A stretch of 64,000 nt of DNA from Celeribacter sp. (GCF_048266585.1 NZ_JBLWZF010000014.1); one strand, 5' to 3'. Positions 4,879 to 62,416 are shown, counted from the first letter of the stretch. Program-made: numbers and translations. The notes: generated by a model not told the origin, from the sequence alone.

Positions 4879-5296
4879 GCATCCGCCCTGCGCGGTCTGT
4901 GCCATAGACGTCGTCGCGGGTGTTGCCGATGGGCGAAAGAAAACTCGCCACCAGATAACCATGGCCGTAATGCAGCTCGACCACATCCACCCCGGCAGCA
5001 TCGGCGCGCCGCGCGGCGTCGACATGTTGCTGACGGATTTTGGCGATCTCCTCGATGCTGAATTCCTCCGGCGTGCTCCATTCGGAACTCGCGGCGATGG
5101 CACTGGGGCCCACACGACGCCAGTCGATGCCGGCGGCGTCAATCTCGGCTGGGGTCATGGCTTGGCCGCCATGCCAGAGCGGCTGCGAAAAGGCTTTGCG
5201 CCCGGAAGGCGCGAGATGCACGCCCATCATGCCGTCATCTGGATCAGCACAAAGGGGATCACGCCGCGATTGGTTCTCCCCACTGACGTGGTCCAC
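4879..5296 (-). pseudogene. Old Yellow Enzyme / NADH:flavin oxidoreductase fragment (both ends missing)
   Basis: ORF 4772..5296 contains GVHLAPSGRKA ... EEIAKIRQQHVDAARRADAAGVDVVELHYGHGYLVASFLSPIGNTRDDVYG, which matches the central OYE barrel region only. There is no N-terminal FMN-binding part and no C-terminal part. It abuts an IS fragment. Confidence 0.6.
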
Positions 5297-5304
5297 CGTA
5301 ATAT

Positions 5305-5457
5305 TTAGCTGTTCAGTCCCGGCATCTGGCGGATCGGATTTAGGATGAATCGCTCTGGCTCTGATGTCCAGATTTTGCAGATGTATTCGTATGGCGTGAG
5401 GCCGCTGAGCGTTTTGAGACGGCGTGCGACGTTGTAGGCGTCCAAGAAGTCGGCAGG
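5305..5457 (-). mobile_element. C-terminal fragment of a DDE transposase (IS481-like)
   Basis: My own minus-strand translation gives ADFLDAYNVARRLKTLSGLTPYEYICKIWTSEPERFILNPIRQMPGLNS-stop. This is the conserved tail of IS481/IS3-superfamily transposases. No catalytic core is present. Confidence 0.6.
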
Positions 5458-6307
5458 TTGAAGTGCTTGTCGGTCAAGGTACAGCGCGTGTGGATGCGAT
5501 CCGACAGGTTCGCATTACCGAACAGACCTATTACCGCTGGCGCAAGCAATATGGTAGGATGGGATCCGACCAACGGAAGGAGCCCAAACGCCTTCAGAAA
5601 GAGAATGAGCGGCTGAGGAAAGTTGTCTCTGATCTGACCTTGGATAAGCTCATCCTCACTGAGGCCGCCCGGGGAGTGAAAGCCGTCATGGAAACGGTCT
5701 GGGGGACCGTTTCAGGCTTGAACGGGCGGAGCCCCTGAGCCCCGCCCGTCGCCGAGCTTGCATCGATCATGACCAAACAAAGTTCCGCCTGTCCGAGCGA
5801 CGCACTTGTCGTGTCCTCGGGCAGCATCGCTCGACACAGAGGAAGGCTCCTCAAGGTCGAGCCGATGAGGATCGGTTGGTCGCAGACATGATCGAACTGA
5901 CCCGCCAGTACGGCCGCTACGGCTACCGTCGCATCGCGGCCCTGCTGAGAGAAGCAGGCAGGGAGGTGAACGATAAGCGGGTGGAACGGCTATGGCGACG
6001 TGAAGGGCTGAATGACGGCTCTTGTGTCCATCTCAGGCCCCGAGCATCGCAACCATGTCTGGAGCTATGCACGTGCCCGTCAGGCGATGCCTGCATCGCT
6101 GAGAGGGACTTCGTTCATTGCCGGACGGAGGACGGAAAGGCTTTCCGTACGCTTCACCTTGATGAGCACAGCCGAGAGTGCATGGCCACCAATGTGAAGC
6201 GTCGGTTGACCTCGGGAGATATCATTGATGCATTGAGCGACCTGTTCATCCTGCGCGGCGTACCGTCGTTCATACGCTCCGAGTTGCCCATTGAAGGCGC
6301 CGTTTGA
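5458..6307 (+). mobile_element. IS3-family insertion sequence remnant (orfA fragment plus degraded orfB)
   Basis: The orfA-like part reads ...ITEQTYYRWRKQYGRMGSDQRKEPKRLQKENERLRKVVSDLTLDKLILTEAARG. The orfB-like part reads LSPARRRACIDH..., DRLVADMIELTRQYGRYGYRRIAALLREAGREVNDKRVERLWRREGL, ...RTEDGKAFRTLHLDEHSRE...FILRGVPSFIRS. Frames are broken, there are internal deletions, and the DDE core is missing. Confidence 0.7.
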
Positions 6308-6380
6308 TGGTGTGGATGGCCCCATCAAACGGCATCGCAATGTGCCAAGGTGGGTTTTACAGTCACCGAAGGCGTCATCT

Positions 6381-6850
6381 ATGCAACAGCCTATCGCGAT
6401 CGGCCTTGATCTGGCCAAGAATGCCTTTCAGGGTCATGGCGTCAGCGCGCATGGGACCGTGGTGTGCCGTCGCCAGTTGCGGCGGGCACAGCTTCTGATG
6501 TTTTTCTCGCGACTGGAGTCTTGTCTGGTTGGAATGGAAGCGTGCGCCGGCGCGCATCATTGAGGGCGGGAGATCGTCGCGTTGGGGCATGAGGTTCGTC
6601 TTATGCCGCCAGCTTACGTCAAGCCTGACGTGAATCGGGGCAAGACAGATGCGGTCGAGGCGGAAGGCATTCGAGACACATCGAGCGTCTGATCGCCGCC
6701 GCTCGGAACGTGCCGGACGCCGCACGAGCGGCCGTGGATCTACTGGCTGAACAGCTTCAGGAGACGCAGAACCGGTTCGATGCGGTCACGGCACGGATTG
6801 CTGAGAGCCAGGCCGATGATCCGTTGGCACGGCGTTTGGCAACGGTGCCC
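6381..6850 (+). mobile_element. IS110-family transposase remnant (in-frame stop, frameshift, internal deletion, 3'-truncated)
   Basis: The fragment reads MQQPIAIGLDLAKNAFQGHGVSAHGTVVCRRQLRRAQLLMFFSRLESCLVGMEACAGAHH-stop. It continues in another frame as GREIVALGHEVRLMPPAYVKPDVNRGKTDAVEAEGI, then later as AARAAVDLLAEQLQETQNRFDAVTARIAESQADDPLARRLATVP. Confidence 0.7.
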
Positions 6851-6855
6851 ATGCC

Positions 6856-7563
6856 GATTTCCTCGCCGCCTGCTACCGTCTGGCGGCGCTCTACAAGTTT
6901 ACTGATCTGATCTACACCCATATCACCGCCCGCGTGCCGGGAGAGGATGGGCATTTCCTGATCAACCCCTACGGATGGCGGTGGGAAGAGATCACCGCAT
7001 CCTCTCTGGTTAAGATTGACGTCGAGGGCAACAAGGTGGACGACAGCCCTTACCGGGTAAATCCGGCGGGATTTACCATTCATTCTGCGGTCCATATGAA
7101 CCGCCACGACGCCGCCTGGATCATGCACACGCACACCCGCGCAGGCGTGGCGGTGTCTTGCATGGAGGAGGGGCTTTTGCCGCTCAACCAGATCTCGCTG
7201 CAATTCCATAATCGCATCGGCTACCACGATTTCGAAGGCATCGCGCTCGATCTCGAGGAACGCAAGCGCATCGTCGCCGATATGGGAATGCATCCGGTCC
7301 TGATGCTGCGCAACCACGGGCTGATCGCCACGGGGCGAAGTGCGGCTGAGATGTTCAACAACATGTTCTACTTCGAGCGCGCCTGCGAAATTCAGGTGAC
7401 GGCGCCCTTGACCGGCCAGCCGCTGCGTTTGATCGGTGATGAGGTTGCCGGACGGGTGCATGAGCAATACATCCAGATGAATGAGGAAGACGGCGATCTG
7501 GAACTGGAATGGCAGGCGCATCTGCGCTCCATCGACGGGATCGGCGCCGACTATCGAAGCTAA
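6856..7563 (+). pseudogene. class II aldolase/adducin-family protein, 5'-truncated at the IS110 remnant
   Basis: The track ORF 6934..7563 starts at a GTG. The same frame is open and homologous from about 6856 (DFLAACYRLAALYKFTDLIYTHITARVPGEDGHFLINPYG...), with stops at 6802 and 6817 and no upstream start. About 25 N-terminal residues are missing. Residual expression from the GTG at 6934 cannot be excluded. Confidence 0.6.
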
Positions 7564-7578
7564 AACGAAAGGCAGCCC

Positions 7579-8586
7579 ATGAAACAAATCACGCTCAAAG
7601 CCCCCGGCGGGCTCGACAATCTTGTGGTTGAGGACGCGGCGGAGCCCGCGGCACCGGGGCCGGGAGAGATCACCGTGCGGCTGCGCGCCAGCTCGCTCAA
7701 TTTCCACGACTACCGGGTCTGTGCCGTAGAGGGCGCCTTGCCCGACGGGCGTATCCCGATGGCGGATGGCGCGGGCGAGGTGGAGGCCGTGGGCAAAGGC
7801 GTGAGCGTGTTTCGCCCCGGCGATGCCGTTGTGTCGTGCTTTTTCCCGGACTGGCAAGAGGGCGATGATCGGCCCTTCGATTTCTCCACCACGCCGGGCG
7901 ACGGGCGCGACGGTTACGCCCGCGAGCGCGTGACCTTGCCCGCCAATTGGTTCACCCCTGCGCCCAAAGGGTGGACTGCGGCCGAGGCCGCGACGATCAC
8001 CACCGCCGGGTTGACCGCCTGGCGTGCTTTGGTGGTCGATGCCGGGCTCAAGGCCGGGGATACGGTGGCGGTTCTCGGCACCGGCGGCGTGTCGATCTAT
8101 GCGCTGCAACTGGCCAAGGCGATGGGGGCGCGGGTGATTGCCACGTCCTCCTCGGATGAGAAGCTCGAACGTCTGCGCGCGTTGGGGGCCGATCACGTCA
8201 TCAACTATCGCACGACGCCCGAGTGGGGCATGGAGATGCGCCAACTCACAGGCGGGCGCGGGGTCGATATCGTGGTCGAGGTCGGTGGCCCTGCGACGCT
8301 CACGCAATCCATCGTGGCCGGGCGTCCCGGCGCGCATATCGCGCTGATTGGTGTGCTGACCGGACGGGCAGGCGAAGTGCCCACGGCGGCGCTGATGGCG
8401 CGGCAACAGCGGCTTCAGGGGCTGATCGTCGGCTCGCGCCAGCATCAACTCGATTTCGTCAAGGCGCTCGAGGTGCTAAACATCCGCCCGGTGATCGACC
8501 GGACATATCCGCTCTCAGAGCTTGCACAGGCTTTCCGCTATCAGGAAAGCGGCGCGCATTTTGGCAAGATTTGCGCCGAGATGTGA
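7579..8586 (+). CDS. zinc-type alcohol dehydrogenase / NADPH:quinone oxidoreductase family (MDR) protein
   Basis: 335 aa with a GroES-like N-terminus (ITVRLRASSLNFHDY, GAGEVEAVGKGV) and a Rossmann motif (VLGTGGVSIYALQLAKAMGARVIAT). Confidence 0.8.
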   Translation: MKQITLKAPGGLDNLVVEDAAEPAAPGPGEITVRLRASSLNFHDYRVCAVEGALPDGRIPMADGAGEVEAVGKGVSVFRPGDAVVSCFFPDWQEGDDRPFDFSTTPGDGRDGYARERVTLPANWFTPAPKGWTAAEAATITTAGLTAWRALVVDAGLKAGDTVAVLGTGGVSIYALQLAKAMGARVIATSSSDEKLERLRALGADHVINYRTTPEWGMEMRQLTGGRGVDIVVEVGGPATLTQSIVAGRPGAHIALIGVLTGRAGEVPTAALMARQQRLQGLIVGSRQHQLDFVKALEVLNIRPVIDRTYPLSELAQAFRYQESGAHFGKICAEM

Positions 8587-8618
8587 GGCTTTGATGCGGC
8601 TTTGATGCGGCTTTGATC
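8587..8618. repeat. 11-bp tandem repeat GGCTTTGATGC, about 2.9 copies
   Basis: Read directly from the sequence. It begins immediately after the stop codon of the oxidoreductase gene. Confidence 0.9.
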
Positions 8619-55945: not shown

Positions 55946-56431
55946 ATGGCTGATGAAATCAAATCCCTCGACGAGCTGAACGCCGTCGCCGGTGGCGAAA
56001 CCGTCGTCGAAGTTGCAGCTCCGCGTGAACCGGTTCGTGACGAACTGGGCCGTTCCTACGCCACCGGCAAGCGTAAAGACGCTGTCGCCCGCGTCTGGAT
56101 CAAACCGGGCTCCGGCAAAGTCACCGTCAACGGCAAAGACATGTCTGTCTACTTTGCTCGTCCGGTGCTTCAGCTGATCGTGAAACAACCGGCTCAAATC
56201 GCTGGCGTCGAAGGTGAATTCGACGTGGTTGCCACCGTCAAAGGCGGCGGCCTCTCCGGTCAGGCCGGTGCTGTGAAACACGGCATCTCCAAAGCTCTGC
56301 AGCTCTACAACCCGGAACTGCGCGCCGCTCTGAAAGCCGCTGGCTTCCTGACCCGCGACTCGCGCGTCGTCGAGCGTAAGAAATTCGGTAAGCGCAAAGC
56401 GCGTCGTTCCTTCCAGTTCTCCAAGCGTTAA
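55946..56431 (+). CDS. rpsI: 30S ribosomal protein S9
   Basis: 161 aa ending in RRSFQFSKR. Confidence 0.95.
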
Positions 56432-56457
56432 TCGCTTACTGGACCCAAGATTTGGAA

Positions 56458-56496
56458 ACCGCCACGGAGCACTCCGCTGGCGGTTTTCTCTTTTTT
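56458..56496 (+). terminator. rho-independent terminator of rplM-rpsI
   Basis: AACCGCCACGGAG-CA-CTCCGCTGGCGGTT followed by TTCTCTTTTTT. Confidence 0.8.
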
Positions 56497-56566
56497 GCGC
56501 CCGTTTTCGCCCTTGGCAGTTTTGCCATGCTGTTTCATAGTTTTCGAAACAGAGAAGGCGTGTCTT

Positions 56567-57637
56567 TTGAAAAATCCCTATTCCGACCTGCCGCCGAAAG
56601 CCTTTTGGAAAACCGGCGTCGTTCAGACGGACAAGGTCCACTGGCCCGAGCTTTTCGTGCCGAAATTCACCATCTCTTCTGACAGCGCCGTCGCAACCGC
56701 CGGTAGTTGTTTCGCGCAGCGCATCCGGCAGGCTTTGGCCGATGAGGAGATGCCGATCCTTGATGTCGAACCCGCGCCTGCGGCGGTGCAGGGCGATCTG
56801 GCGCGGGAGTTCGGCTACGGGCTGCATTCCGCGCGCTACGGCAATATCTACACGCCGCGTCAGCTTTTGGAGCTGTTGCAGGACATGCAAAAGGACGCGG
56901 TGCACAAGGCGCTGATCTGGGAGCGGGACGGGCGCTATGTCGACATGCTGCGCCCGAATGTCGAACCCGATGGCTGTGCCTCGGTGAAAGAGGTGCTCGA
57001 GTTGCGAAAGCAGCATCTGGCACGTCTGCGCGAATTGTTCGAGACGGTCGATGTCTTTGTCTTCACTTTGGGCCTGACGGAAGCGTGGATTCACGAACCG
57101 ACCGGGCGCTGCCTGCCGGTCGCGCCGGGGGTGATCGCGGGGGAGTATGATCCCAAACTCTACCAGTTCCACAATTTCACCCATTCGGAATTACTCAAGG
57201 ATCTCAAGGCGATCCGCGTTCTTCTTCGCGATATCCGCAAGGGGGTGAAGATCATCCTGACCACCTCTCCCGTGCCGATCACGGCGACGGCGTCGGGCGA
57301 TCATGCGTTGAACGCCAGCACCTACACGAAATCCACGCTGCGCTCTGTGGCGGGCGAAATGGCGATGAAATTCAAGGATGTCGATTATTTTCCCGGCTAT
57401 GAAATCGTCACCACATGGGCGCGGGAAAACCCGGCCTATGAGGCGAACCAGCGCAGCATCCGGCCCGAGGTCGTGGCGCATGTGATGGCGGTGTTTCTCG
57501 ACGCTTACGGGCTGCGCAAAACCGGCGCGGCGGATCAGGCGGAGCCCGCAAAGATCCATGACGATTCCGAGTATCTCGAAGGCCATGACGACGATCTGGT
57601 CTGTGAGGAAATCCTGATCGAGGCCCTGCAAAAATGA
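56567..57637 (+). CDS. GSCFA-domain protein (paralogue 1)
   Basis: It contains the eponymous motif AVATAGSCFAQ. I prefer the TTG at 56567 (MKNPYSDLPPKAFWKTGV) because the track start at 56495 lies inside the rpsI terminator. It is about half identical by eye to ORF 58440..59405. Confidence 0.7.
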   Translation: MKNPYSDLPPKAFWKTGVVQTDKVHWPELFVPKFTISSDSAVATAGSCFAQRIRQALADEEMPILDVEPAPAAVQGDLAREFGYGLHSARYGNIYTPRQLLELLQDMQKDAVHKALIWERDGRYVDMLRPNVEPDGCASVKEVLELRKQHLARLRELFETVDVFVFTLGLTEAWIHEPTGRCLPVAPGVIAGEYDPKLYQFHNFTHSELLKDLKAIRVLLRDIRKGVKIILTTSPVPITATASGDHALNASTYTKSTLRSVAGEMAMKFKDVDYFPGYEIVTTWARENPAYEANQRSIRPEVVAHVMAVFLDAYGLRKTGAADQAEPAKIHDDSEYLEGHDDDLVCEEILIEALQK

Positions 57638-58443
57638 CCCGCGCCTTGTTGATTGGAAACTCGCATGTTGGCCCCTATCTCAATGCGCTGAAACATGCGG
57701 AGGGGGAGGTCGCTTTGGACCTCGATTGCATCGCGGCCTTTGGCGACGGTCTGGAGCGTTACACCATTGAGGACGGCGTGTTCTGCGGCAATATCCTTGA
57801 TCCGAAGGTGACCGGGCGCAAGGGCAAGGGACCGTTTCCCGGCTCGGACGCGCGCGCGGTGCTGAAGGATTACGATGTGGTGCTGCTGACCGGGCTCAGG
57901 TTTTCGATTTTTCAGGTGATCCGTGTGTTCCGAGATCTGGGTCTTGTGACGATGGACAGCTCCCGCGATTATGCGACGGCGGCGGAAAACGGCGTGACGC
58001 TGGTCTCCGAGGCTTTGTTGCACCGGCTGATCGCAGAGCGTCTGTCGGGCAGTCTGATGATGCAGATCGCGCGCGACATCCGGGCCGCAACGGATGCGCC
58101 GATCCTTGTGCTGGCCCAACCGCGTCCAACGCGGCAGGTCTTGGTCGAAGGCACAAGGTTCGAGACCTTTTGCAACGCCGAAGAGCGCGGTGAGGGGGAC
58201 TTTGTGTCAAAAACCTATGAGCGCCTCGCGCAGGAGCTTTGCGCCGGGATCGCGGCGCACTATGTGCCGCAGCCGCCGGGAACCATCGACGGGGGGATGT
58301 TTACGGACACCTCCTATATGATGGGCACCCTGCGCCCGCCGTTTTGGAAAAAGAACGGGCGCCCGGTGGATTTTCGCCATGGCAATGCCCGCTATGGGGC
58401 ACGGATGTTGAAACATGTGGCGCGGGAGCTGGAAACGCTGTGA
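57634..58443 (+). CDS. uncharacterised protein with SGNH-hydrolase-like motifs
   Basis: 269 aa. The N-terminus (ALLIGNSHV) resembles SGNH block I, and the C-terminus (VDFRHGNARYGARML) resembles block V (DxxH). Its ATG overlaps the upstream stop (ATGA), and its stop overlaps the downstream GTG (GTGA). Confidence 0.6.
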   Translation: MTRALLIGNSHVGPYLNALKHAEGEVALDLDCIAAFGDGLERYTIEDGVFCGNILDPKVTGRKGKGPFPGSDARAVLKDYDVVLLTGLRFSIFQVIRVFRDLGLVTMDSSRDYATAAENGVTLVSEALLHRLIAERLSGSLMMQIARDIRAATDAPILVLAQPRPTRQVLVEGTRFETFCNAEERGEGDFVSKTYERLAQELCAGIAAHYVPQPPGTIDGGMFTDTSYMMGTLRPPFWKKNGRPVDFRHGNARYGARMLKHVARELETL

Positions 58444-59405
58444 GCCATCCCTATGAAACGAGCCCGGCAAAAGCGTTTTGGCGCAGTGGTGTTGTGGAGA
58501 CCGACCGGCGGCGCTGGCCGGAGATTTACACGCCGGCCTTTCCGATCCGGCCCGAGACAGCCGTCGCCACCGCCGGAAGCTGTTTTGCGCAGCACATTGG
58601 CCGGTTTCTGCGGGACGCGGGCGTCAATGTTCTCGATGTGGAACCGCGCCCTGAGGGCATGAGCGATGAGGCGGCCAAAGCGCGTGGCTATGGCCTCTAT
58701 TCGGCGCGCTACGGCAATATTTACACGGCGCGCCAGCTGCGCGAGTTGTTGGAGGATGCCTTTGAAATCTATGTGGAGGACCGCCATTTTCTGACCCGCG
58801 ACGGGGCATGGTTCGATGCGCTGCGCCCCGGTGTGGAGCCGGACGGCTTTGCCACTTTGGAGGCGGCGGTGGAGGCGCGGCGGGCGCATCTTTTGCAGGT
58901 GGTGGAATTGGCGCAGGAGATGGAGGTGTTCATCTTCACGCTGGGTCTGACCGAAGGCTGGATCGACCGTGAAACGGGGCGGGTGCTGGCGATGGCGCCC
59001 GGCGTGATTGCGGGCGATTACGACCCGGAGCGCTATGTGTTTCACAATTTCACCTATGACGAAATTTACGCCGATCTCGTTGAAATCAGAAAACTTTTGC
59101 TCGGCATCAATCCCAATGTGCAGCTGCTTTTGACGGTCTCGCCGGTGCCTTTGACCGGGACGGCCTCAAATCAGCATGTCTTGGCGGCGACGAGTTATTC
59201 GAAATCGGTTCTGCGCGCGGCAGCAGGGGATTTGGCGGAGACATACGCGACGGTGGATTATTTCCCCTCCTATGAGATCGTTACCACTTGGGCAGCACCC
59301 GAGGCGGCTTTTGCGGCGAACCTGCGTTCGGTCCGGCCAGAGATGGTCGAGGGGGTGATGGAGGTTTTTTTGACCGCGCATGGTTTGGAGACCACTGGCG
59401 GTTGA
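58440..59405 (+). CDS. GSCFA-domain protein (paralogue 2)
   Basis: It carries the motif AVATAGSCFAQH. I chose the GTG at 58440 (VSHPYETSPAKAFWRSGV) by alignment with paralogue 1. The upstream part of track ORF 58239.. overlaps the previous gene out of frame. Confidence 0.7.
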   Translation: MSHPYETSPAKAFWRSGVVETDRRRWPEIYTPAFPIRPETAVATAGSCFAQHIGRFLRDAGVNVLDVEPRPEGMSDEAAKARGYGLYSARYGNIYTARQLRELLEDAFEIYVEDRHFLTRDGAWFDALRPGVEPDGFATLEAAVEARRAHLLQVVELAQEMEVFIFTLGLTEGWIDRETGRVLAMAPGVIAGDYDPERYVFHNFTYDEIYADLVEIRKLLLGINPNVQLLLTVSPVPLTGTASNQHVLAATSYSKSVLRAAAGDLAETYATVDYFPSYEIVTTWAAPEAAFAANLRSVRPEMVEGVMEVFLTAHGLETTGG

Positions 59406-59580
59406 CAGGCGATTGAGGAGCTGCCTGTTTGATGGTCGAAGATGTGGCACATGCCATGAAATTGATCGTAGGGTCGGACTGCCTTTGGGAAAGCTCTTGC
59501 ACATTTGATCAAAATCTTTTCAGGATCGAAGAGACAGGGGATAGGGCCGGGATCGGTTCGGAAACAGGAAGGACACCAGC

Positions 59581-60495
59581 ATGGCGGCGAGCGACAGGAT
59601 ACGTCGTTTTTTCCGGACAGAGCAGGGGATCGGGATGCTTTTGGTGTCCCCGACGGCGCTCTATGCGCTGTTGCTTTTGGCCGTGCCTTTGATCGCGATT
59701 TTCGTGATTTCGTTCTGGACTCAGACCGGGGTGCGCGATTTCGACACCGGCTTTACGCTGGCGAATTACAAAGAGGCGCTCACCGATCCGCTCTATCGCC
59801 AGCTCATGCTGCGCTCTCTTATGGTGTCTGGTCTGGTGACGCTGATCACCGTGGTGCTGGCTTTTCCGATTGCCTATTTCGTGTCTTTCGGGGTGAAGCC
59901 GGAGCATAAATCGCTCTGGATTTTCCTGATCACCATCCCGTTTTGGACCTCTTACCTGATCCGCGTGTTCCTCTGGAAAGTTATTCTCGGCTATAATGGG
60001 GTGCTCAACTCCGGTCTGAAACTCGTTGGTTTGATTGACGAACCTCTGTCCTTCATCCTCTACAACGTCAATGCGGTGATCATCACGCTGGCCCATGCCT
60101 ATGCGCCTTTCGCGATCCTGCCGATCTTTGTCGCGTTGGAGAAAATCGACCGCTCTCTCTTGGAAGCGTCGCGCGATCTGGGCGAGAGCCGGACGATGAC
60201 CTTCCTGCGGGTGACGCTGCCACTGGCCGCGCCCGGCGTGGTGGCCGCTGTGTTGATCGTCTTCATCCCGACCATCGGTGATTACGTGACGCCGCGCCTT
60301 GTTGGCGGGCCGGGGGGCCTCATGATCGCCAATATGATCCAGACCCAATTCCTGCGCCTCAACAACGCGCCTTTGGGGGCCACTTTGGCCGTGCTCGCGA
60401 TGCTGATCGTCGCGGTGATTGCCGTGGCCTTCCTGCTCCTTGGCAACCGGGCCGCAGGTGGAAAAGCGGGTGGCAAGAAAGGAGCGCGCAAATGA
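59581..60495 (+). CDS. ABC transporter permease, spermidine/putrescine (PotB)-type
   Basis: 304 aa with six TM segments and an EAA loop (LEASRDLGESRTMTFLRVTLP). Confidence 0.8.
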   Translation: MAASDRIRRFFRTEQGIGMLLVSPTALYALLLLAVPLIAIFVISFWTQTGVRDFDTGFTLANYKEALTDPLYRQLMLRSLMVSGLVTLITVVLAFPIAYFVSFGVKPEHKSLWIFLITIPFWTSYLIRVFLWKVILGYNGVLNSGLKLVGLIDEPLSFILYNVNAVIITLAHAYAPFAILPIFVALEKIDRSLLEASRDLGESRTMTFLRVTLPLAAPGVVAAVLIVFIPTIGDYVTPRLVGGPGGLMIANMIQTQFLRLNNAPLGATLAVLAMLIVAVIAVAFLLLGNRAAGGKAGGKKGARK

Positions 60496-61289
60496 AATCG
60501 CTCAAGACCTATGCGATCCTCTATCTGATCTTTCTCTACGCGCCGATCTTTCTGTTGCCGCTCTTTGCTTTCAACAGCTCGACGATCATCGCCTTTCCGC
60601 TGGAGAGCTTCACGACTGAGTGGTTCACCCAGCTTTTGACGCTCTCCGAGATGCATGGCGCTTTGCTCAATTCGCTCAAGATTGCCGTGACCTCCGCCGT
60701 GTTGGCGACCACTTTGGGCATTTTCGCCGCCATGGCGGTGTCGCGTTATAGCTTTCCCGGTCAAAAGGGCATCATGGGGTTCATCATGCTGCCTTTGGTG
60801 CTGCCGGAGATCATCGTCGCCGTGTCCTTGCTCATCGTCATCCTGCGCATGGGGCTCGACACCGGCGCCTGGTCGGTGATCGCGGGGCACACGCTGATCT
60901 GCACGCCCTTCGCCATCGCGATCCTGCAATCGGCCTTCGCCGCTTTGGACCCGTCACTCGAAGAGGCGGCCTATGATCTGGGCGAAACGCCCGCCTCGAC
61001 CTTTCGCCTCGTGACCCTGCCTTTGGTCATGCCGGGGATCATTTCGGCGCTGTTGATTTCCTTCACCATCTCGATGGACGAATTCATCATCGCCTTCTTC
61101 CTGACCGGCGCCGAACCGACTTTGCCGGTCTATCTCTTCTCCATGCTGCGGTTCCCGAAACTGCTGCCTGCGGTGATGGCTTTGGGCACGATCCTCGTCG
61201 TGCTCTCCATCCTCTTGATCACAATCGCCGAATTTTTCCGCCGCCGGGGCGCCAAGCGCACGGGCAACGACACCGGGGGCTTTCTTTGA
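60492..61289 (+). CDS. ABC transporter permease, PotC-type
   Basis: 265 aa with an EAA loop (EEAAYDLGETPASTFRLVTLP). It overlaps the upstream gene by 4 nt. Confidence 0.8.
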   Translation: MKSLKTYAILYLIFLYAPIFLLPLFAFNSSTIIAFPLESFTTEWFTQLLTLSEMHGALLNSLKIAVTSAVLATTLGIFAAMAVSRYSFPGQKGIMGFIMLPLVLPEIIVAVSLLIVILRMGLDTGAWSVIAGHTLICTPFAIAILQSAFAALDPSLEEAAYDLGETPASTFRLVTLPLVMPGIISALLISFTISMDEFIIAFFLTGAEPTLPVYLFSMLRFPKLLPAVMALGTILVVLSILLITIAEFFRRRGAKRTGNDTGGFL

Positions 61290-61291
61290 CT

Positions 61292-62416
61292 ATGGCTGAC
61301 ATGACTGCTGATACACCTCTGATCTCTCTGCAAAACGTCAACAAGCACTATGGCGACTATCACGCCTTGCGGAGCATCAATCTCGACATCAAACAGGGCG
61401 AATTCTTTTCGCTTTTGGGGCCGTCGGGCTGTGGCAAGACCACGCTCTTGCGCACGATTGCGGGGTTTGAGGACTATGACACCGGCGCTGTGATGATCTC
61501 TGACCGGGACATGCGCGGCGTACCCGCGAACAAGCGTCCGACCAATATGGTGTTCCAAAGCTACGCGATTTTCCCGCATCTCTCGGTGATTGAAAACGTC
61601 GCCTTCGGGCTGCGCAAATCTAAGATGTCGAAGACCGACAAGATGCTGGCCGCCGAGGCCGCCTTGGAGATGGTCGGCCTCAAAGGCTACGGCCACCGCG
61701 CGGCTCATGCTTTGTCGGGCGGGCAACGACAGCGTGTCGCCTTGGCCCGCGCGCTGGTGTTGAAGCCCAAAGTTTTGCTGTTGGACGAGCCGCTCTCCGC
61801 GCTCGACCGCAAGATGCGCGAACAGATGCAGGTGGAGCTGATCAAGCTGCAACGCGAGGTGGGCATCACCTTTATTCTCGTGACCCACGATCAGGAAGAG
61901 GCGCTTGTGATGTCCGACCGGATCGCCGTGATGTTCGAGGGCGAGATCGCGCAATGCGACGACCCGGAGGTGCTTTATCGCAAGCCCAATTCGAAACGCG
62001 TGGCGGATTTCATCGGGGTGATGAATTTCCTGCCTGCGACGGTTCGGCAAGAGGGCGAGACCTATCTGGCCGAGATCGCCGGGCTGGGCGAAACCGAGAT
62101 CACCGAGGCGCAATGTCCAGGCGGTGTGCCTCTCCAGAATGACAACAGGGGCGAGGCCACGGTGGGCTTTCGCCCCGAGACCCTGACGCTTTTGTACGAG
62201 GGCCAAAGCGCCACCCACCGCGAAGCCCCCGCCGTGGTGGACGAGGTCGTCTATTACGGCGATATGACCTATTACGACGTGCGGTTTGAGGGTGTCGAAA
62301 AGCCGGTGCGTATTTCGATGCGCAACATCTTTGGCCGCGATGTCTTGGCCGTCGGCACGAAAGTCCGCGTCAGCTGGTCGCCGGGCGCGCTGGTGGTGTT
62401 CGACCAGAGCGCATGA
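61292..62416 (+). CDS. ABC transporter ATP-binding protein, PotA-type
   Basis: It has Walker A (GPSGCGKTT), the signature LSGGQRQRV and Walker B (LLLDEPLSALD). The ATG at 61292 follows the PotC-type stop. Confidence 0.85.
   Translation: MADMTADTPLISLQNVNKHYGDYHALRSINLDIKQGEFFSLLGPSGCGKTTLLRTIAGFEDYDTGAVMISDRDMRGVPANKRPTNMVFQSYAIFPHLSVIENVAFGLRKSKMSKTDKMLAAEAALEMVGLKGYGHRAAHALSGGQRQRVALARALVLKPKVLLLDEPLSALDRKMREQMQVELIKLQREVGITFILVTHDQEEALVMSDRIAVMFEGEIAQCDDPEVLYRKPNSKRVADFIGVMNFLPATVRQEGETYLAEIAGLGETEITEAQCPGGVPLQNDNRGEATVGFRPETLTLLYEGQSATHREAPAVVDEVVYYGDMTYYDVRFEGVEKPVRISMRNIFGRDVLAVGTKVRVSWSPGALVVFDQSA

Follow-up and report, generated by a model that had tools for sequence, protein, structure and literature searches.

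What kind of system is encoded by three overlapping genes that follow the ribosomal protein genes rplM and rpsI in Celeribacter sp. (GCF_048266585.1, NZ_JBLWZF010000014.1), the outer two specifying GSCFA proteins and the middle one a protein without a recognised family? We examined a stretch of 64,000 nucleotides from this genome, hereafter the window, whose plus strand carries these three open reading frames (ORFs). GSCFA was listed in a 2022 review as one of five families of the SGNH clan (CL0264) without known activity or structure (PMC9487903), and an initial sequence-only reading of the window had singled out the trio as its best candidate for a new three-part enzymatic system. Our analysis leads elsewhere: the unit is a pair, made of a GSCFA protein (G) and its downstream partner (X), and it has a precedent in the PipG/PipF pair of Pseudomonas entomophila. 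We consider it likely that two copies of this two-gene module occupy the locus, one intact and the other truncated, with a function in acyl transfer suggested by homology. The features concerned are the following.

56567-57637, plus strand: G1 (ORF1), intact PipG-like GSCFA protein of 356 residues, TTG start (PF08885, E = 4.5e-46).
57634-57637, plus strand: ATGA start/stop overlap between G1 and X (read from the sequence).
57634-58443, plus strand: X (ORF2), partner of 269 residues with a predicted SGNH fold, remote homologue of PipF (profile comparison, AlphaFold2, Foldseek).
58440-58443, plus strand: GTGA start/stop overlap between X and G2, lineage-specific (read from the sequence; a gap of 48 nucleotides stands there in Celeribacter neptunius).
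58440-59405, plus strand: G2 (ORF3), tail-less GSCFA paralogue of 321 residues, GTG start (PF08885, E = 2.3e-51).

The coordinates and families first proposed for the three ORFs after the rplM-rpsI terminator were borne out. Against the PF08885 hidden Markov model (HMM), ORF1 and ORF3 score 157.9 and 175.3 bits (gathering score 25 bits) over positions 2-237 of 237; both carry the motif AVATAGSCFAQ, whose GSCFA letters are residues 46-50 of ORF1, and they are 54% identical over 321 residues aligned without gaps, in keeping with the early view of paralogues about half identical. Both junctions are indeed overlaps of four nucleotides, with GAGG or GGAG lying 11-15 nucleotides 5' of each. The possibility that the overlaps are artefacts of wrong start calls was checked, and the TTG and GTG starts are upheld because the N-termini of ORF1 and ORF3 (M-x-x-P-Y...A-F-W) line up with those of homologues. 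The GC content of the three genes (0.60-0.61, against 0.60 for the window) gives no sign of recent horizontal acquisition. No signal peptide was found in the G or X proteins of the window, an Rfam search over 56300-59700 gave nothing above noise, and PADLOC, NCBIfam and PDB sequence searches of the ORFs returned nothing useful.

To which neighbours, then, is a G gene tied in other genomes? X-family alignments hold no conserved stretch of 7-10 columns, and the survey was seeded from G instead: one genome per species was scanned with two conserved G peptides, giving at least 600 stretches, at least 585 of them encoding relatives, and the best 80 loci, those most like ORF1, were kept (numbered with the prefix L below). 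Rhodobacterales and other Alphaproteobacteria supply most of them; some come from cyanobacteria, and Anaerolineae, Opitutaceae and Arthrobacter contribute one each. In a local HMM survey, four of these loci, which lie at contig ends, were uninformative and 76 informative. In 63 of the 76, X comes immediately downstream of G on the same strand, and 57 of these 63 pairs share an NTGA overlap of four nucleotides (47 ATGA, 7 GTGA and 3 TTGA). Three loci fuse G, its C-terminal tail, a linker of ~25 residues and an X-like domain (AGNSH ... DIHANA) into a single protein of ~640 residues.

L064, 6001-7911: natural G-X fusion, Pseudosulfitobacter.
L083, 6001-7899: natural G-X fusion, Sulfitobacter.
L021, 3790-5721: natural G-X fusion, Cyanobium.

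In three loci from cyanobacteria the X HMM overlooked a divergent partner with the motifs G-x-S-H ... D-x-x-H; a highly diverged partner just 3' of G (G-T/G/P-S-H ... D-x-x-H), for the most part not recognised by that HMM, was seen in the cyanobacterial loci L012, L049, L062 and L077. Of eight contexts sampled by starting from X, all had a G gene, or one of the size of G, next to it. The orders G-X-X, X-G and G'-X-G (the last in L004 and L071) also occur. The conserved unit is thus the G-X pair and not the triad, and ORF1 with ORF2 makes up one intact module. The coupling that had been read from both overlaps holds for G1 and X, given the recurrence of that overlap and the three fusions; the overlap of X and G2 is not conserved, C. 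neptunius having its gap there. Coupled synthesis and association in a complex are plausible.

The middle protein was said to belong to no recognised family, and this remains so: ORF2 has no match in Pfam (E <= 1), NCBIfam, PADLOC or PDB sequences. The proposed HMM check accordingly came out divided, with PF08885 recognising ORF1 and ORF3 and the Pfam SGNH models, PF13472 and PF00657 included, leaving ORF2 unmatched at E <= 1; among precomputed Pfam domains, none falls on any X homologue. A word-indexed search with ORF2 retrieved only two relatives, and a word-indexed profile search with the X-family alignment only eight proteins. Exhaustive HMMER searching of 1.84 billion representatives yielded 326 relatives at E <= 1e-3, of which 70 reach E <= 1e-10; almost all have 250-290 residues and match over their whole length. 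In an alignment of 82 X sequences, G8, H11 and N251 never vary, and at least 90% of the sequences have S10, D246, H249 and G255, which gives the family the signature G-N-S-H ... D-x-L-H-A-N-A-x-Y-G. The two strings that had been noticed as SGNH-like, LLIGNSHV and VDFRHGNARYG, hold these conserved residues. GNSH (residues 8-11, block I) directly follows strand E2-8 of the AlphaFold2 (AF2) model, and D246-F-R-H249 (block V) lies near the C-terminus; among the other conserved columns, D81, S125, P163, Q213 and T224, no clear equivalents of the oxyanion residues, the Gly of block II and the G-x-N-D of block III, were found. Conservation points to the following candidate catalytic triad.

57661-57663, plus strand: Ser10 of X.
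58369-58371, plus strand: Asp246 of X.
58378-58380, plus strand: His249 of X.

The structure prediction that had been called for sustains the SGNH-like fold, a three-layer alpha/beta/alpha arrangement. The AF2 model of X, computed from the 82-sequence alignment, reaches a predicted local distance difference test score (pLDDT) of 90.7 and a predicted template modelling (pTM) score of 0.89, and all 12 of its 12 Foldseek matches in the PDB at E <= 1e-3 are SGNH/GDSL proteins: esterases, lipases, and the acyltransferases PatB, the periplasmic domain of OafB and the perhydrolytic acyltransferase 8zbc. Such matches reach E about 5e-5 with template modelling (TM) scores of 0.4-0.5, and since the TM scores are only of this order, X is to be regarded as a distant member. 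ORF2 is therefore supported, by the model, as a candidate SGNH-fold enzyme. It shares with the superfamily the predicted fold, the block I serine and the D-x-x-H of block V, and differs in that no Pfam SGNH model matches it and the window proteins have no signal peptide; the known SGNH transferases, for their part, consist of one domain or carry a fused membrane AT3 domain and are not soluble pairs of SGNH-like proteins.

One X-family paralogue (P0011) has alanine in place of the serine (GDAH) and tyrosine in place of the histidine (DLWY), and is probably an inactive copy because both residues are replaced. In the G-X-X loci (L014, L023, L027, L032, L041), an active X may stand beside such a degenerate copy. 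A protein of 1965 residues with fn3/FGE-sulfatase repeats (P0112; L088, 4352-10249) was retrieved as an X relative on the strength of ten weak alignments with the last 55 residues of X; it sits among PEGA-domain genes, and we set it aside as probably spurious, its context being unrelated.

The GSCFA proteins have conserved features of their own. In 23 aligned G sequences, G46, S47, C48, F49, A50 and His246 are invariant. The acidic C-terminal tail that had been noticed in the first paralogue is real, and it proves to be a conserved feature of the family: in nearly all G proteins, after an acidic linker, the consensus at the end reads C-[DE]-[DEQ]-x-[LIMF]-[LIMF]-[ED]-A-F, which takes the form DDLVCEEILIEALQK in ORF1 (CEExLLEAF), with C346 invariant in the 23 sequences and L350 and A353 present in at least 90%.

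57587-57634, plus strand: C-terminal tail of G1, DDDLVCEEILIEALQK, with the Cys346 codon at 57602-57604 (family conservation).

ORF3 lacks this tail and keeps all other invariant residues of the G family. Across all scored G genes, the gene's own partner being counted whether downstream or fused, 74 have both tail and partner, 2 the tail only, 2 the partner only and 7 neither, an association that is descriptive and ignores phylogeny (Fisher p 2.5e-7). From this co-occurrence we infer that the tail is the element by which G engages X, as a proposed docking or relay device. In two Roseovarius loci (L065 and L068, 7040-9300), G has a variant tail, LICDEERLE, and no X after it; what follows is a protein of ~230 residues with an S-adenosylmethionine methyltransferase-like motif (ILEYGSGGST) and no Pfam match, then a coiled-coil protein of more than 500 residues.

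Where block V of an SGNH protein would lie, the two GSCFA copies had been thought to read RSIRPE and RSVRPE rather than D-x-x-H. Both strings are present, and the absence of a recognisable D-x-x-H agrees with what has been published for PipG (PMC12828459). A non-catalytic role of the copies is not supported: Cys47 is important in PipG, and Ser47, Cys48 and His246 are invariant here and are candidate catalytic residues in G. Comparison of the G and X profiles with hhalign, global and local, gave no significant similarity between the two, and hence no placement of block V in G. A model of ORF1 built from a two-sequence alignment (pLDDT 56) leaned towards SGNH proteins in Foldseek (SsfX3, GDSL esterases), with none at E 1e-3, and was not used.

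What could such a pair do? The sequence-only reading took GSCFA to be without an established function and the arrangement to be undescribed; both statements were overtaken by a paper of December 2025. In the biosynthesis of pseudotetraivprolide by P. entomophila, PipD, PipF and PipG are each required for the terminal O-acetylation, and removal of pipD, of pipF or of pipG leads to accumulation of the non-O-acetylated precursors (PMC12828459). PipG is a GSCFA protein without a canonical Ser-His-Asp triad, and PipF is a hypothetical protein that always adjoins it; the pipG deletion was complemented only by pipF and pipG together, and Ser18 and His211 of PipF and Cys47 of PipG are important residues (PMC12828459). 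Homologues of the pair are found in Streptomyces as RmoJ/RmoK, DetH/DetI and MirD/MirC (PMC12828459, PMC9503745).

With the Pip protein sequences taken from the supplement of that study (PMC12828459), ORF1 and PipG were found to share 39% of their residues along the full length (E 2e-75), the DLVCE of the tail included, PipG ending in ...CEDLVCEDAILDYA. For the partner, a PipF profile was built from 29 relatives from Pseudomonas, Parachitinimonas and Streptomyces, S. rimosus included, and hhalign aligned it with the X profile with a probability of 97.5% (E 8.7e-12) in an alignment of 211 columns that extends across both proteins. The alignment places GNSH on GDSH and D-x-L-H-A-N-A-x-Y-G on D-D-P-I-H-G-N-L-A-F-G, and in these aligned motifs Ser18, Asp208 and His211 of PipF correspond to S10, D246 and H249 of X. 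PipG is 47-48% identical to alphaproteobacterial G proteins and PipF ~13% identical to X; the pace of change in the partner is far higher than in G.

The two systems share their layout as well. In the Pseudomonas and S. rimosus clusters, too, G comes first and F second, the ends of the two same-strand genes overlapping; the partner has an N-terminal G-[ND]-S-H and a C-terminal D-x-x-H-[GA]-N, and neither the X nor the PipF family has a Pfam model. They differ in that Pip-type pairs sit among nonribosomal peptide synthetase (NRPS)-polyketide synthase (PKS), TauD and MbtH genes, whereas the window pair follows ribosomal protein genes; in that X is ~30-40 residues longer than PipF; in that the window module is partly duplicated; and in that the Pseudomonas system requires PipD. 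With respect to PF08885 at large, which Pfam lists as uncharacterised, ORF1 and ORF3 are clear members, and the subfamily to which they belong is set apart by the conserved Cys tail and the obligate downstream partner. Judged by these sequence comparisons, the window system is best described as a PipG/PipF-type pair with a much-diverged partner.

Because PipG and PipF are jointly required for O-acetylation, we propose that the two window proteins G and X assemble into a heteromeric acyl-transferase of the cytoplasm, which would most likely transfer acetyl groups and might possibly be an esterase. X would supply the serine nucleophile and form an acyl-enzyme intermediate; G would be its obligatory partner, binding through the C-terminal tail and contributing the conserved Cys48; and the acyl acceptor would be a small molecule or a sugar and not a detoxin/rimosamide-type peptide. 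By analogy with the Pip proteins, the chances that the pair carries out acyl transfer seem to us about even.

Several observations weigh against this proposal or against the pair as an obligatory unit. In the Pseudomonas precedent, expression of PipDFG in Escherichia coli gave no acetylation, and the evidence consists of genetics and modelling (PMC12828459). PipF and ORF2 match by BLASTP at E 0.11, which is not significant, with ~13% identity. No PipD homologue was found by phmmer (E <= 10) among six-frame ORFs of the window and 85 loci, and an NRPS/PKS or TauD context is absent from the 64-kb window, in which the largest ORF has 1025 residues. The module counts come from the 80 loci most like ORF1 and are uncorrected for shared ancestry. 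Two loci, L010 (6993-7685) and L041 (7088-8710), have a tail-less G and yet an X downstream; the X of L010 is short (230 residues), and L041 has two X genes after a gap of 131 nucleotides. Solo tail-less G genes are under selection, and G can therefore work without an adjacent X, which suggests that the G core has some partner-independent value. Finally, most SGNH enzymes are hydrolases, and for that reason an esterase activity is equally compatible with the fold of X.

The last point leads to the alternative that survives best, namely that the module is a hydrolase, with X, and perhaps G, acting as a cytoplasmic esterase or deacetylase on a metabolite or sugar. The structural neighbours of X are for the most part esterases or lipases, the superfamily is dominated by hydrolases (PMC9487903), and RTX proteins with SASA-type carbohydrate-esterase domains adjoin G-X in several genomes. 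We nevertheless regard this alternative as a serious but rather doubtful one: the sole genetically characterised homologues add an acetyl group (PMC12828459), the acyltransferases PatB, OafB and 8zbc are among the neighbours of X, and two subunits with a conserved Cys would fit transfer chemistry better.

Within the preferred acyl-transfer reading, a more specific version can be framed, in which G-X is a general, hitherto unrecognised type of soluble two-component acyl-relay transferase with a coenzyme A (CoA) thioester as donor and a housekeeping metabolite as acceptor. G would load the acyl group from the thioester onto Cys48, the acidic linker and Cys346 would serve as a swinging arm that docks on X, and the Ser10-Asp246-His249 site of X would pass the group on to the metabolite. 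CoA-thioester donors and a place in primary and not natural-product metabolism are hinted at because the module is spread through Alphaproteobacteria and cyanobacteria and is nested between scoA and scoB in 9-11 Rhodobacterales loci. We hold this version to be unlikely.

The pairing matters beyond this locus. The sole functional lead on GSCFA so far has been the genetics of one natural-product cluster in 2025. PipG/PipF-type pairing is not peculiar to such clusters: as a conserved module, coupled in translation and in some cases fused, it occurs without a surrounding biosynthetic cluster in the genomes of at least 585 species. Also identified here are a partner family without a Pfam model, its likely catalytic triad as judged from conservation, and a Cys tail that is lost together with the partner. 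The tail, the Cys and Ser residues and the natural fusions offer handles on GSCFA function, the fusions being suited to structure work.

There remains the third gene, and the question of why an isolated GSCFA paralogue follows an intact module. The neighbourhood survey disposes of the three-gene sandwich as a unit, since congeners with the same rplM-rpsI/ABC (ATP-binding cassette) site hold G-X (genome CP028475, L005), G-X-G-X' (C. neptunius, L001) or a single tail-less G (Celeribacter sp. HF31, L006). The X' of C. neptunius is 32% identical to ORF2, and the G of HF31 is 89% identical to ORF3. G1 is 79-80% identical to the G1 of C. neptunius, and ORF3 is 66% identical to its G2, which has 378 residues and a tail. 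By blastn, window positions 59200-59387 correspond to 11601-11789 of L001, and homology resumes at window position 59487 and L001 position 12803.

59388-59486, strand not applicable: deletion scar, ~100 bp in place of ~1.0 kb that comprises the G2 tail and X' (blastn against L001).

By these comparisons, ORF3 is the G of a second tandem module, whose ancestral G-X-G-X form survives in C. neptunius. The same kind of loss is seen at a scoA/scoB locus, where C. neptunius has scoA-G-scoB (L051) and C. ethanolicus scoA-G-X-scoB (L063), ~920 bp being reduced to ~113 bp. The tail and X were thus lost together in two independent deletions, each of which left an intact G. Module copy number is very fluid within Celeribacter; C. 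neptunius has three G and two X genes in its two loci (L001, L051). The three-gene arrangement is an evolutionary accident of duplication and deletion and not a new system, and we are highly confident of the architecture and history of the locus as read here.

The sequence-only reading had favoured a dedicated 1:1:1 complex, in which two non-catalytic GSCFA paralogues flank and regulate one SGNH enzyme. Its appeal is plain from the single operon with four-nucleotide overlaps at both junctions, the purifying selection on ORF3, the want of a recognisable D-x-x-H in GSCFA and the recurrence of the order G(tail)-X-G(tail-less) in L004 and L071. Those two triads arose separately, however, since their first G is only ~31% identical to other G proteins; congeners hold two, four or one genes at the same site; the X-G2 overlap is absent from C. 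neptunius; ORF3 has lost the very tail that tracks the presence of a partner; and its orthologue persists alone in HF31. We judge such a complex improbable.

To the same degree we doubt that ORF3 is a decaying pseudogene left by the deletion, with only ORF1-ORF2 of consequence. It has neither tail nor partner of its own, and its dN (nonsynonymous substitution rate) exceeds that of the housekeeping genes on either side by a factor of ~5 to 10. Against decay stand an intact frame over 321 codons, the retention of all invariant G-family residues save the Cys346 of the missing tail, and the intactness of a second tail-less solo G (L051). The ratio of nonsynonymous to synonymous substitution (dN/dS) is 0.14 between ORF3 and its HF31 orthologue, itself intact and the sole G at that site, and because of this ratio we take the tail-less ORF3 to be maintained and not decaying.

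Downstream of the three genes, and in the same form in L001, L005 and L006, lies a transporter whose proximity the sequence-only reading had thought possibly meaningful.

59581-62416: ABC importer, two permeases and a TOBE-domain ATPase, without an adjacent substrate-binding protein gene.

That the genes serve this importer, say by acylation or de-esterification of what it brings in, is very improbable: in four or five Celeribacter genomes the two are neighbours on one strand, but a gap of 176 nucleotides separates ORF3 from the permease, the ABC genes stay whether the G/X genes number 1, 2, 3 or 4, permease clusters occur in only five Celeribacter loci out of 86, and elsewhere G-X lies between scoA and scoB, by RTX proteins or by glycosyltransferases, so that we reject the functional link as genus-level synteny that holds regardless of G/X content.

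The other neighbours are of several kinds, and because they are so varied the module can be argued to be self-contained. In nine Rhodobacterales loci the two CoA-transferase subunit genes scoA and scoB (PF01144) enclose G-X, all on one strand, and in 12 loci overall a G gene has CoA-transferase genes around or beside it. L030 has the order scoA-scoB-G-X, and in L051 (C. neptunius) the G between scoA and scoB is tail-less. The nesting could be an insertion hot-spot or a hint at CoA-thioester acyl donors. Large RTX calcium-binding-repeat proteins with an N-terminal SASA or CAP domain adjoin G-X in at least 14 loci; SASA is sialate O-acetylesterase-like, and some of these proteins add DUF4214. 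Some G-X modules adjoin glycosyltransferases.

L035, L046, L047, L055, L063, L066, L067, L074, L084 (~5200-8600 in most): scoA-G-X-scoB loci.
L018, L019, L027, L034, L056, L069, L075, L076, L080, L082, among others: RTX-adjacent loci.

Upstream of the G-X-G operon, three elements were considered.

56456-56496, plus strand: intrinsic terminator hairpin of rpsI, AAACCGCCA...TGGCGGTTT, then a T-run (read from the sequence).
56513-56541, plus strand: promoter-like TTGGCA-17-CATAGT for the G-X-G operon (consensus scan).
56514-56527, strand not applicable: inverted repeat TGGCA-GTTT-TGCCA, probably incidental.

The inverted repeat had been pointed out in the short promoter region, and it is present; three congeners (L001, L005, L006) do not conserve its right arm, and it overlaps the -35 hexamer, for which reasons we reject it as a regulatory site. 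C. neptunius and Celeribacter sp. HF31 share both promoter-like hexamers with the window, and we read the functional element at 56513-56541 as a putative promoter and not as the inverted repeat. The rpsI hairpin was not listed by the terminator scan, whose loop limit of 8 nucleotides its longer loop exceeds; its stem is kept by compensatory changes in C. neptunius.

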